Of a stretch of 64,000 nt of DNA, positions 47,334 through 55,473 are shown piece after piece (position 1 is the stretch's first letter; every line of letters starts with the position of its first letter). This DNA comes from a virus: the IMG/VR virus record IMGVR_UViG_3300046028_008994; one strand, given 5' to 3'. The notes beneath the pieces are model-generated. The model ran no database searches. It was not told where the DNA came from and worked only from the letters and a program-made list of their open reading frames with translations. Made by a program: the position numbers and the translations under genes.

Positions 47334-48089
47334 ATGAAAACAAATATATATTATCTATGTAGAGAAGATAAAGTTCCATTTTATGTAGGAAAAGCTAATA
47401 ACTTAAAAATTAGAGAAAACCAACATAAATTAAAATTAGGGAAAAACATTATTTTAGAAGCAATAGATGAAATACCAACAAATGAATGGAAATTTTGGGA
47501 AAAACATTATATTTCTTTATTTAAAAGTTGGGGTTTTATTTTAGTAAATAAAAATGAAGGTGGTGGAGGAGAATTATATAGATCCGAAGAAACTAAACAA
47601 AAATTAAGAAAACCTAACCCAAAAGCAGGTAGAAGAGGTCCATTAAATCAAGAAATAAAAAATAAAATAAGTAAATCAAAAACAGGAAAACATCATACTG
47701 AAGAAACAAAATTAAAAATATCAAACTCAAATAAAGGAAAATTGGTTTCACAGGAAACATTAGATAAAAAAAGAAAGGCAATGGTTGGTAAAAAATTTAC
47801 TGAGGAAACTAAATTAAAGATGAGTATGTCTTCAAAAGGTAAAACTAAATCTCTACTTCATAAAGAAAAAATAAAAATACATCTTGATAATATTAAAGAT
47901 AAAATAAGAAAAGCAAAGAGTAAACCTGTTTTACAATATGATTTAGAAGATAATTTTATTAAAGAATGGAATAGTATGACTGAAGTAAGTAATACTCTAA
48001 AAGAAATAAAAACATCAGGGATAAGTCGTTGTATATGTGGTAATCAAAATTATTATAAAGGATTTATATGGAAAATAAAAATAATTTAA
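47334..48089 (+). mobile_element. GIY-YIG-type homing endonuclease with NUMOD3 repeats and NUMOD1
   Basis: IYYL...PFYVGK, NKNEGGGG, repeated EETK.K.S, PVLQYDL..FIKEW. Confidence 0.8.
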
Positions 48090-49726: not shown

Positions 49727-50953
49727 ATGGAATCAAAACAATTAATCAAAGTATTAGCGTTAGTCCTCGCTATCACGGTGGCTGTAATTATCAATCCGTT
49801 CTCATGGAATGATGCTACTGAAAGAACAGTAATTACCCAAATGAGTGGTAAACAATTTGTAGAATTTAAACCGGGTGTGTTTTATGCAGGTTTCTTTTCT
49901 AAAGAAACAACTTACCCAAATCAAATTTCAGTATCACATATGGATACTGCATTTAATGGTGATTATAGTTTAACAGATAACACATGTGAAATAGGAGTAA
50001 TCAAAGACGTTAGGTTTAATGATGCAACTACAGCAGTTATTTCAGGTATTACTCAGTATATTTTACCTCCAGGTGAAAAAGAAATGATTGAAATACATAA
50101 TGCTCATAGATCACCAGAATCATTTGTACAACGTAGATTAGCACCTTACACAATTGAATGTTTAAAATCAAGCGCTCAGTTAATGAGTTCTGAAGCCCAT
50201 TACAGTGGTGGTAGAGCCCAAATGACACAAGACTATATGGATCAACTTAGAAATGGTTCTTATTTATTAAATATTAGAGAATTAATTTTATATGATTCAT
50301 TAGAAAAATCAAATAAAAGAACATATGCTGTACAAATTCAAGTAAGTAAAGGTGGTGATAAATTAAGAAAATTCAGTTCAATTAAAGAATACTCTGTAAT
50401 TGTAGGTGATGCTCAAATAATTGATGTTGACTATGAGGTAAAAGTTGATGAAATGTTATCTAAGAAAATTGATGCCGCTACTAAAGCAAGTATTTCAAAA
50501 CAAGAATTAATGACTGCTCAACAAAAGCAATTAACAGCTGAAGCTCAAGGTAAACAAACATTGGTTGAGATTGAATATAAACAAAAACAAAATCAAACAA
50601 TTGAGGTAGTAAAAGCACAAACGTTAGTTGAATTAGCTAAACAGGATTTAATCAAACAAGAGATTGCTAGACAAGCCGCTGAAAAAGAAGCTGCTAAAAT
50701 TAAAATATTAGCAGATGCTCAAGCATATGAAAAACAAAGATTACTTCAAGCCGATGGTGCTTTGGAACAAAAGTTAAAAGCATATACAACAGTAATGGGA
50801 TATTGGTCCACAGCGTTTTCAAATCACCAACATCCATTAACACCAACGTTTATGATGGGTAGCGGAAATGGAGGTAATGCAGGAACGAATTTCATGGAAT
50901 TAATGAACATGAAAACAATGAAAGATTTAAATCTAGACTTCAAAACTAAATAA
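49727..50953 (+). CDS. SPFH/Band-7 family membrane protein
   Basis: N-terminal TM, VRFNDA, AE/AQ-rich coiled coil, ADGALEQKL. Confidence 0.75.
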   Translation: MESKQLIKVLALVLAITVAVIINPFSWNDATERTVITQMSGKQFVEFKPGVFYAGFFSKETTYPNQISVSHMDTAFNGDYSLTDNTCEIGVIKDVRFNDATTAVISGITQYILPPGEKEMIEIHNAHRSPESFVQRRLAPYTIECLKSSAQLMSSEAHYSGGRAQMTQDYMDQLRNGSYLLNIRELILYDSLEKSNKRTYAVQIQVSKGGDKLRKFSSIKEYSVIVGDAQIIDVDYEVKVDEMLSKKIDAATKASISKQELMTAQQKQLTAEAQGKQTLVEIEYKQKQNQTIEVVKAQTLVELAKQDLIKQEIARQAAEKEAAKIKILADAQAYEKQRLLQADGALEQKLKAYTTVMGYWSTAFSNHQHPLTPTFMMGSGNGGNAGTNFMELMNMKTMKDLNLDFKTK

Positions 50954-50977
50954 GAAACTTTAAAATATTTTCAAATT

Positions 50978-51011
50978 AAGGCTTGGTTATCCAGGCCTTT
51001 TTTTGTATATT
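50978..51011 (+). promoter_or_regulatory. Terminator-like hairpin plus promoter for the cassette array and thyA
   Basis: AAGGCTTGG-TTAT-CCAGGCCTT, TATATT at 51006. Confidence 0.75.
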
Positions 51012-51019
51012 TACGATAT

Positions 51020-51235
51020 ATGGATAAACAAAGATACACACAATCATTATCTTCAGAAGAATTCGAAGCAGCTTATGTAAAATACGCTTGTAATGAAGTC
51101 ACTCACAACACAATGACTCGAGGTGAATTTGCTAATTTGTTAGAAACAAATAAAGAATTTGCTAAAAGGTTTGTTCCTAATTATTTTGATAATACATTTG
51201 ATTGGTCTTATAATAACGAAACTGAAATAAAATAA
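51020..51235 (+). CDS. Hypothetical protein, distant match to ThyA insertion 1
   Basis: AYVKY...MTRGEFANLLETNKEFAKRF vs AYKNY...TQEEFINKIKTDDKFRHW. Confidence 0.5.
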   Translation: MDKQRYTQSLSSEEFEAAYVKYACNEVTHNTMTRGEFANLLETNKEFAKRFVPNYFDNTFDWSYNNETEIK

Positions 51236-51284
51236 TGTTCCAAACAAATCACAATAACATACAACAATAAAACAATAGAAAGTT

Positions 51285-51497
51285 ATGAAAATTAATAGAC
51301 CAAAAGATGGTGACTATAGATATAAAACTAAGTTTTTATGGTTCCCTAAAAGATTTGATGGCGGGTGGTATTGGTTAGAAATTGTAACCATTAGACAAGT
51401 ATATTTTTATTATGGACTAATCCCAGGATGGTATAATGTGTGTTTGTCAAACCCAGAATCAGGTCTCCCAATAAGTATTGACCCCATTAAAAAATAG
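51285..51497 (+). CDS. Hypothetical protein (cassette)
   Basis: FLWFPK....WYWLE pattern. Confidence 0.6.
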   Translation: MKINRPKDGDYRYKTKFLWFPKRFDGGWYWLEIVTIRQVYFYYGLIPGWYNVCLSNPESGLPISIDPIKK

Positions 51498-51503
51498 AAA
51501 GTT

Positions 51504-51857
51504 ATGAATAAAGAACAACAAGAATTATTGGATGAGGCTTATAAGAATTATTCTAAAAAAATGATGTATCATCCGGTGGAAAATTGGTTAGATGATGGAA
51601 ATGGTGAAAAAACTTACCGACAATTATCACAAGAAGAATTCATCAACAAATGTAAAAACGATACAGAGTTCTCTGGAAGGTGGGGATTAAAGATTGAAGA
51701 ACGAGAATTAGATATGATGGAAAGATGGAAGATAGCCGACCTAACACCTAATATGGAAGAATTTGATTTTGCTAATTATATGTGCGACAAACACAATGTA
51801 CCAACCAAACTAATCACAATAACATACAACGATAAAAAAATAGAAAGTTATGAATGA
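51504..51857 (+). CDS. ThyA-insert-like protein A
   Basis: Paralog of 52046; EAYKNY, QEEFINK, WG, EREL, NVPT blocks match ThyA inserts. Confidence 0.7.
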   Translation: MNKEQQELLDEAYKNYSKKMMYHPVENWLDDGNGEKTYRQLSQEEFINKCKNDTEFSGRWGLKIEERELDMMERWKIADLTPNMEEFDFANYMCDKHNVPTKLITITYNDKKIESYE

Positions 51858-52053
51858 AGAAGAAAAATTTGTAGATTGGATTGAAAGTCTAGTTGGTCGG
51901 GAAATTGTAGATTATAATATTAAACCAAAGTTTGATGATGACGGAAACGTTTTATCCTATGATATTATGGTACAGCCAAAAATGTCATTACAATATTTAG
52001 AGATTCCAATTACGATATCATCAACAGATAAAACAATAGAAAGTTATGAATAA
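51850..52053 (+). CDS. Hypothetical protein (cassette) ending DKTIESYE
   Basis: 67 aa ORF. Confidence 0.55.
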   Translation: MNEEEKFVDWIESLVGREIVDYNIKPKFDDDGNVLSYDIMVQPKMSLQYLEIPITISSTDKTIESYE

Positions 52054-52540
52054 AGAACAACAAGAATTATTGGATGAGGTTTATAAGAATTGGTGTAAAC
52101 AATTTGAAGTTGACCCCAATAATTTTAATGTGGATGAATTAGTTAAAGGACACGGTGACCAGTGTTGGGGTTATCCTATATTAGACCATGTTAAACCAAC
52201 ATCAAAAGAATATAAAAGAGGTCAAATAAACGCTTATTTAGAGGGTAAAGCAGATAGACCTTTCTTTTATTTATCAAAAGAAGAATTCATCAACAAATGT
52301 AAAACTGATATTGTGTTCTCTGAAAAGTGGGGATTAAAGATTGAAGAACGAGAGTTGAGTTTGGAAGAAAGATGTGATGAATATATTAAAATAAATCCAC
52401 AAGAAACAAATGATGGAGTATTGAATTACAAATGGATTGGAGACAATCTATGTACTCATGAAGATTACAATAAATGGAATATCCCAACCAAACTAATCAC
52501 AATCACATACAACGATAAAACAATAGAAAGTTATGAGTAA
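52046..52540 (+). CDS. ThyA-insert-like protein B
   Basis: EEFINKCKTD, WG, RELSLEERC, NIPT blocks match ThyA inserts. Confidence 0.7.
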   Translation: MNKEQQELLDEVYKNWCKQFEVDPNNFNVDELVKGHGDQCWGYPILDHVKPTSKEYKRGQINAYLEGKADRPFFYLSKEEFINKCKTDIVFSEKWGLKIEERELSLEERCDEYIKINPQETNDGVLNYKWIGDNLCTHEDYNKWNIPTKLITITYNDKTIESYE

Positions 52541-52814
52541 AAGAAAAGAAAAAAAAGACCGAATAAAACAAAGATGGGATGCACTTCAAACCGAGATTGA
52601 CAATTTATTTAATTCAATTATGTATGAATCATTTACAGAATGGAAGGGTATTATTGAAATCGAAATCATACAAATCATTAAGAAATATAATGTTGTGGCT
52701 TGGTATGGTAGAGAATTGAAAGTAATTACATCAATACACCCAGTTGATAATGAATACACTTTTGATGTTAGAACAATCAAAGGTAATTGGAGAGTAATGA
52801 AAATTATTAAATAA
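52533..52814 (+). CDS. Hypothetical protein (cassette)
   Basis: 93 aa ORF. Confidence 0.55.
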   Translation: MSKRKEKKDRIKQRWDALQTEIDNLFNSIMYESFTEWKGIIEIEIIQIIKKYNVVAWYGRELKVITSIHPVDNEYTFDVRTIKGNWRVMKIIK

Positions 52815-52833
52815 ATTAAGCTAATAGAAAGTT

Positions 52834-52983
52834 ATGAATGAAATACAATATTTTTTAAAAAAGGCAATAAGTTCTTGTAGAAAAGGTAAATTTTACTACA
52901 GACCTTGGAAACAATTACTAACTATTATTCTACTACAAATTAAATGTAGGATATTAACAGGAAAAACATTAGACAAACTATGA
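52834..52983 (+). CDS. Small hypothetical protein (49 aa), ATGA-coupled to thyA
   Basis: MNEIQYFLKK...TLDKL, starts in the sixth repeat. Confidence 0.5.
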   Translation: MNEIQYFLKKAISSCRKGKFYYRPWKQLLTIILLQIKCRILTGKTLDKL

Positions 52984-54149
52984 ACAATCTAGATAAACAA
53001 TACACAGACCTACTTCAAGACATTCTTGATAATGGTGTACAAAAAGGAGACCGCACAGGAACTGGAACCATTTCAGTATTCGGTAGACAAATTCGTCATA
53101 AAATGAGTGATGGTTTTCCATTACTTACAACTAAGAAGATGCCTTTCAAAACAATTGTAACTGAATTGTTATGGTTTTTAAGAGGTGATACAAACATTAA
53201 GTTCCTTGTGAATAATGGTTGTCATATTTGGGATGGTGATGCATATAAAAATTATTTGAATGTGGTTATGTTTGAAAAACCTGACTATCTACACGAAAAA
53301 CACGGGCATCTTAATATGAGTGTAAAAAAAGAAGGTGATAACTATCTACCATTTACACAAGAAGAATTTATCAATAAAATTAAAACTGATGATAAATTTA
53401 GACATTGGGGTGAGTTAGGTCCGATTTATGGTAAACAATGGAGGCGTTGGACTAAAAAGAAAATGTGGTTATCAACCGATGGCTCATATGAAAACATTTA
53501 TGATGAAGCTGACCAAACGGTTATTGACCAAATAGCTGGATTAATCAACGACCTTAAAACAAATCCAGATTCAAGACGATTGATGGTTAATGCTTGGAAT
53601 GTAGGTGAATTAGATGAAATGGTACTTCCACCTTGTCATTATGGATTTCAACTTTATACAAGAGAGTTGAGTTTTGATGAAAGATGTAAAATACAAATCG
53701 ATAGATTAGATGGGATGTATTCATCAGAAAAAGATTTGTTTATCCATCATTCAATTAATGCGGTAAAACAAATAAAAATGGATAAAAACAATATCCCAAC
53801 CAGAGCAATCTCTTTAATGTGGAATCAACGTTCAGTAGATACTGGGTTAGGATTAGGTTTTAATATAGCTAGTTATGGATTGTTATTAGAGATTTTTGCT
53901 AAAGAAGTAAATATGGTTCCTGATGAGCTTATAGGTAATTTAGGAGATGTACATTTGTATTTGGATCATGTAGAACCTATTAAAGAACAATTAACAAGAG
54001 AACCATTCCAATTACCTAAACTAAAAATTAAACAACATTCTATTGATGAACCAAGTCCTTTAACAAAACCTCAATATTGGCATCCTGATGATTTTGTAGT
54101 TGAAAATTACCAATCTCATCCTACTATTAAACTTCCCTTATCAAATTAA
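52980..54149 (+). CDS. thyA: Thymidylate synthase with three large insertions
   Basis: DRTGTGT, FPLLTTK, ELLWFL, GPIYG.QWR, SRR, LPPCH, QRS.D, FNIASY, HLY. Confidence 0.95.
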   Translation: MNNLDKQYTDLLQDILDNGVQKGDRTGTGTISVFGRQIRHKMSDGFPLLTTKKMPFKTIVTELLWFLRGDTNIKFLVNNGCHIWDGDAYKNYLNVVMFEKPDYLHEKHGHLNMSVKKEGDNYLPFTQEEFINKIKTDDKFRHWGELGPIYGKQWRRWTKKKMWLSTDGSYENIYDEADQTVIDQIAGLINDLKTNPDSRRLMVNAWNVGELDEMVLPPCHYGFQLYTRELSFDERCKIQIDRLDGMYSSEKDLFIHHSINAVKQIKMDKNNIPTRAISLMWNQRSVDTGLGLGFNIASYGLLLEIFAKEVNMVPDELIGNLGDVHLYLDHVEPIKEQLTREPFQLPKLKIKQHSIDEPSPLTKPQYWHPDDFVVENYQSHPTIKLPLSN

Positions 54150-54202
54150 TGTAGAAAATGTATTTTTCATATATTTATAATCAACGGAATGTTGATAGAT
54201 TT

Positions 54203-54982
54203 ATGGAAAATTATTATTTATATTATCATAAAAACCCACTAACTAAAGAGTTATTTTATATTGGGATAGGAACAAATAAAAGAGCATGGGATTTTACCTC
54301 AGGAAGAAATCCTCATTATAAAAATTATATTAAAAAACATGGTGAACCTATAGTGGATATAATTAAAGAAAATCTTACTAAAGAAGAAGCATGTTCTATT
54401 GAAATGGAATATATAGCTAAATATGGAAGAAAAGGAATAGAACCTAAAGGTATATTACTAAACAAAAGTATTGGAGGAGAGATTATTGCTTTAGGAAATA
54501 AATTTACTGAAGAGCAAAAACAAAAAATAGTTCAAGCTAAAACAGGACAAAAATATAATATACCTGAAGGAAGAGCCCATGGTAGTAAAGGTAAACCTAA
54601 ACCTGATGGATTTATGAGTGATGAAATAAAAGAAAAAATTAGCAAAGGAAATAAAGGAAAAAAACATAGTAAAATTCACAGTAATAAAGGAATACCTATC
54701 TCTGAAGATACTAAGCAAAAAATAAGTAAGGCTAATTCTAAACCCAAACCAGAAGGTTTTGGAAATACTATTAAACAAAATAGAAACCATAAATTAATAG
54801 GAGAAAAAAATAGTAAACCTATCATTCAATTAGATACTCAAAATAATATAATTTGTGAATTTAAATCTGTTAAAGAAGCACTTAAATATTTTAAAAAATC
54901 AATAAATAACTCTTGCATAACAGCTTGCCTAAAAGGAAGACAAAAAACAGCTTTTGAGTATGTTTGGAAATACAAAGAATAA
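54203..54982 (+). mobile_element. GIY-YIG-type homing endonuclease with NUMOD3/NUMOD1 (likely start MENYY)
   Basis: YLYYH....FYIGIG..KRA, E.E.I..YGR, LLN...GG, KPIIQLD..YVWKY. Confidence 0.8.
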
Positions 54983-54999
54983 TTCGTATATTAATAACA

Positions 55000-55212
55000 A
55001 TGATTAAATTAAAGTTAATAAATCCCGTAGGTGATATCGTTAAAGATATTGAATTATCAGAATGGACAGATATTGAAAGTTTTAAATCAAGTCATAGATT
55101 TATATTAGAGTCTAGCGATGGTTCAATATTCAATTACTCAGAAAAAGAATGGATGGAATTACCTCCTGATTATCAATCACACCCAACAATTAAAGCACCT
55201 TTATCTAATTAA
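55000..55212 (+). CDS. Hypothetical protein ending in a copy of the ThyA C-terminus
   Basis: ...DYQSHPTIKAPLSN vs ThyA NYQSHPTIKLPLSN. Confidence 0.6.
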   Translation: MIKLKLINPVGDIVKDIELSEWTDIESFKSSHRFILESSDGSIFNYSEKEWMELPPDYQSHPTIKAPLSN

Positions 55213-55227
55213 TTAATATTTATAATC

Positions 55228-55473
55228 ATGATAAAATTAACTGACATTTTGGATGAAATTAAAACAGATATCAATGAAATAAGCGATGTGAAATATGCTT
55301 ATTATATGCTTAAATATGATAATAATGAAAAAACATATATGACTAGTGGTTATCTTAAAGTATTAAGTTTTATAAGTAGTAATAATATAACTGATTACGA
55401 ATTATATGGTAGAAAATTTAATCCTAAAAATCGTTCAAATGAATGGGAATTTATTGAAAAAACTAATGTCTAA
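55228..55473 (+). CDS. Hypothetical protein with leader MIKLTDILDE
   Basis: ATATTTATA-ATC-ATG. Confidence 0.55.
   Translation: MIKLTDILDEIKTDINEISDVKYAYYMLKYDNNEKTYMTSGYLKVLSFISSNNITDYELYGRKFNPKNRSNEWEFIEKTNV

Follow-up and report, generated by a model that had tools for sequence, protein, structure and literature searches.

We examined a 64,000-nt stretch of viral DNA (the window) from the IMG/VR virus record IMGVR_UViG_3300046028_008994, which corresponds to positions 53853-117852 of a 171,684-bp phage genome with direct terminal repeats. Coordinates below are those of the window unless stated otherwise. The locus of interest, at 51020-52983, comprises seven small genes that run on the forward strand into thyA, the gene of a thymidylate synthase, together with six copies of a short direct repeat, hereafter the joint (Table 1). 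Two of the seven open reading frames (ORFs), here called P genes, resemble parts of thyA; the four others that start at a joint are referred to as cassette genes. Judging from the geometry of its starts and stops, the stretch appears to form a single, translationally coupled operon. Only one terminator-like site was detected in the region 50700-55400, and none within the array. The best match to a sigma-70-like promoter in the region (TTGATA-17-TATAAT, 11/12), which may or may not be relevant in the host, falls at 51186-51214, within the 3' end of ORF 51020 and just 5' of the first joint.

Table 1. Features of the array and of its surroundings in the window. L-numbers designate contigs of relatives from IMG/VR.
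Feature	Positions	Strand	Remarks
UvsX/RecA-like recombinase gene, 365 aa	5710..6807	+	PF00154, 29.9 bits, above cut-off
Terminator-like hairpin with T run	50978..50999	+	closes the upstream 408-aa gene; 5' edge of the array transcription unit
ORF of 71 aa, first gene of the unit	51020..51235	+	family F17
Orphan P-gene tail	51240..51288 (about)	+	ends in junction copy 1 (14-mer at 51275-51288)
Cassette gene, 70 aa, no assigned function (phrog_11031)	51285..51497	+	TAG stop inside junction copy 2
Junction copy 2	51494..51507	+	class B, not read as IESYE; contains the start codon of P gene 1
P gene 1, 117 aa, thyA-derived mini-gene	51504..51857	+	ends IESYE
Junction copy 3	51840..51853	+	IESYE end of P gene 1 and ATG of ORF 51850
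Cassette gene, 67 aa	51850..52053	+	diverged P-type tail, ends IESYE
Junction copy 4	52036..52049	+	left breakpoint of the block 343/345 identical to L087
P gene 2, 164 aa	52046..52540	+	ends IESYE
Junction copy 5	52523..52536	+	IESYE end of P gene 2 and ATG of ORF 52533
Cassette gene, 93 aa	52533..52814	+	no family match
Junction copy 6	52824..52837	+	non-coding, 10 nt past the stop of ORF 52533; ATG of ORF 52834
Cassette gene, 49 aa	52834..52983	+	stop overlaps the thyA start (ATGA)
thyA, 389-aa thymidylate synthase	52980..54149	+	PF00303, E 1e-93
Free-standing homing-endonuclease-like gene, NUMOD3/NUMOD1 motifs	54158..54982	+	phrog_314; directly 3' of thyA
Small ORF whose C-terminal 13-14 residues repeat the ThyA C-terminus (YQSHPTIKAPLSN)	54964..55212	+	86% over 14 aa, E 1e-5

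Exact copies of the 14-mer ATAGAAAGTTATGA start at 51275, 51494, 51840, 52036, 52523 and 52824, all on the forward strand and within 1.6 kb, and the core common to the six copies is 15 nt long (AATAGAAAGTTATGA). Every copy contains the start codon of the ORF that follows it (ATG at 51285, 51504, 51850, 52046, 52533 and 52834, respectively). The repeat also encodes the C-terminus IESYE of ORFs 51504, 51850 and 52046; the copy at 51494 is read in a different frame, with the TAG of ORF 51285 inside it, and those at 51275 and 52824 are non-coding. Our pattern searches thus recovered the six positions, the start codons and the three IESYE ends that an earlier note had described from the letters of this DNA. 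That note had also called ORF 51850 otherwise unrelated to the other genes with this ending; the ending is there, but the gene is not wholly unrelated, since a diverged P tail makes up its final ~50 nt (67% identity over 73 nt, DNA family D1). When the complete genome was searched with at most one mismatch, ATAGAAAGTTATGA occurred six times on the forward strand, never on the reverse strand, never as a reversed-pattern control and never beyond the array. The 14-mer is therefore confined to this locus and is not common at gene starts across the genome, as it would be if it were simply the favoured initiation context that the earlier note had named as an alternative.

Part of the element does nevertheless belong to such a context. 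The 186 ORF starts of the genome (ORFs of at least 90 aa) are A-rich only, with no Shine-Dalgarno signal, and GTTATG is found at 16 of them. We counted 19 forward and no reverse copies of AAGTTATGA in the genome, and seven copies of GAAAGTTATGA, six of them within the array. A generic start context was rejected as an account of the whole joint because the full 14-mer is missing from the rest of the genome, the common context being restricted to the 3' 9-10 nt. Start sites of this genome thus favour the 3' part of the repeat, while the element as a whole is locus-specific. None of the six joints is overlapped by a promoter-like site; the closest such site is the one at 51186-51214, which lies 5' of the first joint only. 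We found no inverted repeat, attC-like or otherwise, recurring at the joints and no hairpin in the array. At the joint, the upstream gene stops 2 nt past the ATG of the next gene. From this arrangement, the joint would act at the level of translation, as a start signal combined with stop-start coupling.

The two P genes, ORFs 51504 and 52046, are paralogues (40% identity), and both are collinear with residues ~87-144 and ~221-288 of the adjacent ThyA (E values of 2e-6 and 2e-4 for the two segments in ORF 51504, and of 3e-5 for both in ORF 52046). P and thyA also share DNA stretches of 76-81% identity (families D5, D6, and D8). Descent of P from thyA was tested by collinear sequence similarity, which is present, and we take the P genes to be thyA-derived mini-genes. 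An alignment of 38 unique relatives from 25 loci revealed a common layout: an N box MNKEQQELLDEAY, a first hypervariable segment, a central box (EEFINKCKTD.EFSEKWGLKIEERELS.EER), a second hypervariable segment and a tail box NIPTKLITITYNDKTIESYE. In ThyA, the counterparts of the boxes are the conserved sequences on either side of two of its four hypervariable insertions. The ThyA N-terminal core, the segment with the catalytic cysteine (PPCH, C219) and the entire C-terminal half have no counterpart in P, and ORFs 51504 and 52046 matched neither PF00303 nor any other Pfam or PHROG family. We rejected P as a functional thymidylate synthase since the complete fold, the catalytic cysteine and the deoxyuridine monophosphate/folate segments are not represented.

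A profile search of 1.84 billion representative proteins recovered 622 P clusters at E ≤ 1e-3 and at least 443 at E ≤ 1e-10 (clusters defined at 50% identity); the best 150 representatives listed were all 104-221 aa long. With tblastn, a P protein found nothing in 50,697 cultured phage records, and the nearest cultured thyA sequences were those of Flavobacterium phages (~70% nucleotide identity). The AlphaFold2 model of ORF 51504 had a predicted local distance difference test score (pLDDT) of 88 and a predicted template modelling score of 0.72. Foldseek returned nothing for this model at E ≤ 0.001 in the PDB, and the best Z in a wide search with VIA-align was 3.7, so that P was assigned to no known fold. 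Helices and strands follow each other in the same order in the models of P and of the corresponding ThyA segments, only the order of elements being compared as the ThyA model was moderate (pLDDT 70.5). In the P boxes, the non-synonymous difference was 0.17-0.23 and the synonymous difference 0.35-0.50, and the median whole-gene ratio of non-synonymous to synonymous rates was 0.43. From these values, P proteins look like real, constrained proteins.

The 14-mer corresponds to the final 14 nt of the P tail box, with the ATG of the next gene contained in TATGA. It terminates 26 of the 38 unique P genes in its exact form, and the variants found in the others (TTAGAAAGTTATGA, ATTGAAAGTTATGA, ATAACGAGTTATGA, and others) retain TATGA. 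Among 71 junctions from 19 arrays, 43 are read as an IESYE-type tail; the 28 others, non-coding or in another frame, are mostly exact as well, so that the conservation of the joint acts at the nucleotide level, whichever the reading frame. In the same phages, the synonymous difference was 0.35 in the P tail box and 0.68 in the thyA core. The conserved joint is frequently longer than the 14-mer (AAAACA-ATAGAAAGTTATGA-(A/G)TAAAGAA), and the stretch shared by abutting P genes reaches ~75 nt at 86-91% identity (DNA families D1 and D7). Many unrelated cassette genes begin with MNKE or MSKE, as P genes do, which is expected if crossovers took place just inside the joint. We also noticed that the 14-mer agrees at 11 of 14 positions with thyA nucleotides 53862-53875 (ATAGCTAGTTATGG, which encodes I-A-S-Y-G within the PFNIASY motif), and that the P tail keeps, 14 nt upstream of the joint, a CAACG resembling the QRS codons of thyA. 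The 14-mer may derive from thyA, a lead only in view of the weak 11/14 resemblance.

Relatives were searched for in IMG/VR with ThyA, the P protein and the 15-mer. We obtained 21 distinct arrays with at least two joints (≤1 mismatch), each with 2 to 10 joints, in divergent phages. In the whole records of five relatives, as in the window genome, the exact 14-mer was restricted to one cluster. Downstream flanks were available for 15 arrays, and 13 of these have a thymidylate synthase gene directly 3' of the array, which in ten cases encodes an insertion-bearing ThyA. The arrays of L152 and L185 are associated with a compact ThyA of 276-277 aa, adjoined in L152 by an I-TevI-like GIY-YIG gene. The largest array, that of L091 with at least eight P paralogues, is followed by a gene for ThyX (PF02511), preceded by a GIY-YIG gene. 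Cassette families F2, F7, F5, F12, F21, F11, F14, and F15 recur across phages with differing neighbours, and the content of the array differs in every phage compared. This wide variation runs counter to the fixed content that the earlier note had listed as the outcome unfavourable to its proposal, and breakpoints are enriched at the repeat, as described below.

The thymidylate synthase gene 3' of the arrays is replaceable. The corresponding region contains a ThyX gene in L091 (L091:5041-6715) and one for a compact ThyA of 276-277 aa in L152 (L152:4324-5955), L185 (L185:12679-13506), and L087 (L087:1021-1848). P arrays thus persist both with ThyX and with compact ThyA without insertions.

Several alignments place the limits of exchanged segments at the joint. 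In nucleotide alignments of families F7 and F2 with their flanks, similarity begins at the 14-mer, the upstream flanks being unrelated. For F7, it stops at the next 14-mer, after which three phages carry three different genes, one of them thyA; for F2, it stops at the start of the next gene. The window and L087 share a block with 343 of 345 identical positions, which extends from 52029, six nt 5' of a joint, to the end of the central box at 52373. Beyond the block, the two sequences are unrelated on the left and, on the right, in hypervariable segment 2, and the compact ThyA of L087 is only 22% identical to that of the window. A match with L046 (51636-51855, 90.5% identity) ends two nt past a joint, and one with L194 (51363-51518, 94%) covers the 3' half of ORF 51285 and the joint. 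Among high-scoring segment pairs between arrays (at least 88% identity and at least 100 nt), 43% of the endpoints are no more than 20 nt away from a joint, whereas coverage would predict 13% (binomial p 7e-10).

The orphan tail at the 5' end of the array is 94-98% identical over 43-55 nt to the P tails of L091, L144, L183, and L191; it is ~4 nt shorter than intact P tails and out of frame. Its existence and its deletion, both reported previously, are clear, whereas its interpretation as an excision scar is not retained: a joint-to-joint event would leave one clean joint and no remnant. In addition, L212 carries a homologue of ORF 51020 immediately followed by an intact P gene. The orphan tail is thus the remnant of a P gene whose body was internally deleted, possibly between AATG microhomologies. 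ORF 51020 itself displays a weak similarity to the insert-1 region of P (E 0.019).

The hypervariable segments of P have their counterparts in ThyA, whose four hypervariable surface insertions (window residues ~93-127, 158-180, 236-270, and 351-368) interrupt a highly conserved core, 85-97% identical between many of these phages (thyA of L007-L089 and of the window). The loops reassort independently: L058 and L080 (core identity 0.97) differ in loop 2 only, and loop 1 is the sole difference between the ThyA of L035 and L070 (core 0.94). Across relatives, ThyA ranges from 298 to 484 aa. At the amino acid level, segment 1 of ORF 52046 is 0.90 identical to the thyA product of L089 and segment 2 is 0.89 identical to that of L088, whereas the two segments share only 10% and 26% with the window's own ThyA. 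Likewise, segment 2 of a P gene of L148 is 0.96 identical to L056 ThyA and segment 2 of a P gene of L183 is 0.71 identical to that of the window. The corresponding DNA matches between P genes and thyA loops reach 82-93%, against 72-80% for the thyA cores of the same phage pairs. Among the best 150 P representatives, a thyA match of at least 60% spanning the loop was found in 28 for loop 1 and in 12 for loop 2. P segments matched the thyA of their own phage at 0.29 at most, a result expected by chance with ~22 comparisons and not used as evidence. We thus abandoned the idea that P never matches its own thyA as a functional argument, less than one match being expected from ~22 comparisons with dozens of alleles.

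Between thyA genes, the synonymous difference fell to 0.26-0.41 in residues 181-222 and in the conserved boxes on both sides of loop 2 (53643-53830 in the window, thyA codons 223-285), the remainder of the core having a value of 0.68. This would fit either a constraint at the nucleotide level or frequent exchange.

Taken with the geometry of the joint, the mosaic patterns make it likely that the joint is the site where cassettes are duplicated, lost, inserted and swapped by homologous recombination, and homologous recombination at the joint and the boxes is the most likely mechanism. It would act on the joint (14-30 nt exact, to ~75 nt at abutting P genes) as well as on the two other boxes, and the partners could be either replicating copies or relatives infecting the same cell. 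The route could be unequal crossover, or excision of a circle followed by its re-insertion, and the enzymes could be the phage UvsX-type machinery or those of single-strand annealing. Double-strand breaks made by the GIY-YIG endonucleases clustered at the thymidylate synthase gene might stimulate the process. Any gene joined at the 14-mer would inherit a start codon, the A-rich ..AAGTTATGA start context and coupling by termination and reinitiation; as the joint carries the stop-start overlap, every recombination product would stay translationally coupled. Recombination from box to box would likewise allow P genes to trade hypervariable loop segments with thyA genes of different phages.

The earlier note had proposed an integron-like array that gains and loses units at the junction repeat, without an integrase in view and possibly with phage UvsX as sufficient machinery. 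We retain the core of this proposal with some amendments. The repeat is not a free-standing site, being the conserved 3' end of P genes fused to the next start, and it would not be the only one used, as the two other conserved boxes inside P genes probably serve too. A UvsX/RecA-like gene is indeed present (Table 1), and a search of the complete 171,684-bp genome for PF00589 tyrosine integrases yielded no match, and neither did a search for resolvases. The likeness to an integron holds as an analogy only, since there is no attC-like inverted repeat. A second, weaker RecA-like match (24.9 bits, in a 300-aa frame) lies outside the window, at genome positions 130472-130852. The genome gave at least four Pfam hits to GIY-YIG, in free-standing endonuclease genes that include one located 3 kb 5' of the array (47334-48089), in addition to the NUMOD gene that follows thyA.

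Several points weigh against recombination at the joint. It is deduced from mosaic patterns in metagenome-assembled contigs, and the segment pairs of the endpoint test are not independent, having been counted from both partners and coming from arrays that share ancestry. The arrays of L148 and L189 do not lie beside a thymidylate synthase gene. An exact core of 14-30 nt is also short for efficient recombination of the UvsX type, efficient exchange in T4 requiring longer homology, so that the true substrates may be the longer P-tail and P-start boxes, with the 14-mer kept for another role, for instance in translation or protein binding.

Four competing explanations were considered. One of them, a tandemly duplicated family diverging in place without any cassette exchange, its 14-mer kept by ordinary selection on a C-terminus and a start context, would account for the paralogy of the P genes (40% identity), for the 14-mer being primarily a P tail (26 of 38 P genes), for the genome-wide preference for AAGTTATGA (19 forward copies, none reverse) and for the constraint on the boxes at the protein level (0.17-0.23 non-synonymous against 0.35-0.50 synonymous difference). 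We nevertheless find it distinctly improbable, as it fails to explain why the 28 joints not read as IESYE are mostly exact, why unrelated cassette families stand between joints and recur elsewhere with other neighbours, or why a joint-bounded block of 343/345 identical positions is found in a phage with a different ThyA type and breakpoints are enriched at joints. Another explanation attributes the element to a phage protein similar to RegA that would bind identical start regions in the RNA and thereby control the array genes jointly, recombination being a by-product, and is compatible with a role of the joint in exchange. Such an operator could well span a start codon, remain identical at six starts and be kept regardless of the upstream frame, and the 14-mer contains GUUAUG, a sequence also present in the RegA consensus obtained by systematic evolution of ligands by exponential enrichment. 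No RegA homologue (PF01818) was found in the genome, however, the locus yielded no candidate for an RNA-binding protein, and variable content and breakpoints would be left unexplained. RegA itself was thus discarded, and an operator for some other protein is kept only as a rival of low probability.

A site-specific nuclease target at or near the joint, for instance that of a GIY-YIG homing endonuclease whose breaks would drive the shuffling, is unlikely too, though it deserves somewhat more credit, and it could represent the initiating step of recombination at the joint instead of an alternative to it. The thymidylate synthase gene has neighbours with GIY-YIG or NUMOD motifs in the window, L046, L091, L144, and L152/L154, and one such gene stands farther upstream in L059, the genome of the window having the several GIY-YIG hits mentioned above; we found no endonuclease gene in the examined flanks of L088, L093, L134, L160, L183, and L109. 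A 14-mer exact in any frame would suit a protein recognition site, and its 11/14 match, with the shared CAACG 14 nt upstream, falls in the PFNIASY region of thyA, the classical homing site of the T4 td intron and I-TevI. Such a match is nevertheless weak in AT-rich DNA, and the hypothetical cleavage site would, moreover, be shared in part by the window's own thyA. Finally, the mosaic patterns could be artefacts, with strains joined at repeats by metagenome assemblers, given that every relative is a metagenome-assembled contig and that the P-tail and P-start boxes reach ~75 nt at 86-91%. We regard this as very improbable. Exact repeats measure merely 14-30 nt, which is shorter than the usual final k-mers of assemblies, and different samples independently gave near-identical arrays (L152/L154; L097-L100). 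When one block stands between two different left and two different right flanks, at least two real genomes must contain it, whichever contig is chimeric, and the window genome closes with direct terminal repeats.

The closest known counterpart of the joint is found in T4-type phages, in which promoter-early stem-loops (PeSLs) stand between small non-essential genes (Arbiol et al., 2010, PMC2839356; Comeau et al., 2014, PMC4122927). PeSLs coincide with the breakpoints of insertions, deletions and replacements, which are due to homologous recombination without a dedicated recombinase, and their cassettes form mini-circles, the very product that the earlier note had proposed here (PMC2839356, PMC4122927). 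Both systems have short conserved expression signals repeated between variable small genes, with breakpoints at these signals and a signal gained by the gene that is joined. They differ in that a PeSL is an intergenic combination of a sigma-70-type promoter and a terminator hairpin present in several regions, whereas the joint has neither promoter nor hairpin, is partly coding (the P C-terminus), has a core of 14-15 nt and occupies one locus beside thymidylate synthase. We did not classify the joint as a PeSL: flanking variable ORFs and breakpoints are present, but the repeat contains neither a strong sigma-70-like promoter nor a terminating stem-loop. A second parallel is provided by the gp38 adhesins of T4-type phages, whose hypervariable segments alternate with short conserved motifs that are the crossover points (Trojet et al., 2011, PMC3157838). 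P genes and thyA exhibit the same layout of boxes and hypervariable segments, with segments reassorting independently. Diversification is obviously purposeful in gp38, a receptor-binding protein, whereas here it concerns loops on a housekeeping enzyme and mini-copies devoid of its core.

The resemblance to integrons concerns layout only, that is, a one-directional row of mostly promoterless small cassettes, variable in number and content, with a repeated site and expression from one end. In the array, the site consists of direct repeats lying across coding sequence and start codons, and cassettes would be exchanged by homology. An integron proper was rejected, as neither an IntI-type tyrosine recombinase nor a resolvase/serine recombinase was found in the genome and no attC-like structure at the joints. 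The array also recalls Neisseria pilS/pilE and Borrelia vls, with partial copies beside a full-length gene, variable segments between shared boxes and alleles common to the partial copies and full-length genes. In contrast to these systems, P genes are intact, apparently translated ORFs with purifying selection in their boxes and a confidently predicted fold, and arrays persist beside thymidylate synthases without loops (compact ThyA or ThyX). No close pair of phages differing by a transfer from the array to thyA was found, alleles being shared between different phages only. With respect to long-form ThyA (PF00303, with an insertion in the small domain), the resemblance of P is the collinearity with residues ~87-144 and ~221-288.

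The joint and the dynamics of the array are a variant on the known shuffling of phage modules, in an undescribed gene family. Phage genomes are mosaic, yet the sequences at which exchange occurs are seldom visible, and here the joint is explicit: within 14-15 nt, one gene ends and the following one receives its start signal, and any crossover there would leave the joined gene correctly expressed. Its conservation extends to phages in which the thymidylate synthases have only 55-70% of residues in common. The PeSL concept would thus extend from transcription signals to translation signals, and the joint is a specific substrate on which short-homology recombination of T4-like phages could be tested. 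As for P, this unnamed family of at least 443 protein clusters consists of housekeeping-enzyme surface loops copied without the core, which would be swapped modularly with thyA, and the arrays make the question of combinatorially variable thymidylate synthase loops approachable.

One speculative answer, to which we attach a low probability, is that P mini-proteins are allele-specific decoys or poison subunits, forming an arsenal in a conflict over thymidylate synthase, with the joint serving to stack and exchange alleles. As free copies of the loop domain that retain two strands of the ThyA central sheet, they would target either the loop-bearing ThyA brought in by rival phages during co-infection or a host sensor recognising the loops, and ThyA loops would be targets forced to keep changing. 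The occurrence of the largest array in a ThyX phage and the match of P loop alleles to the thyA of other phages would fit this idea, as would the lack of any match to the phage's own thyA, although the latter is not statistically informative with this sample. A literature search for hypervariable phage thymidylate synthases, or for ThyA as a trigger of defence, found nothing relevant.

Fragments of thyA also occur in other genes of the region. Small ORFs located 3' of the thymidylate synthase gene in the window, L091, L183, and L019 end in a copy of the ThyA C-terminus (…HPTIKAPLSN); the homologue of ORF 54964-55212 in L091 (L091:6503-6715) is 89% identical and adjoins ThyX. This suggests either that the gene was replaced through crossovers at the thyA 3' end or that endonuclease cassettes carry a spare thyA end. 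Cassette family F15 (in L160 after F7, array coordinates 2523-2648; L093:5631-5768) starts with the thyA N-terminus (MNKLDK…), so that 5'-end fragments of thyA have also been taken into array genes. The F7 cassette (L144:3554-3718, L160, and L212), which has the cleanest joint-to-joint boundaries of any cassette, encodes 54 mostly hydrophobic residues and looks like a small membrane protein.

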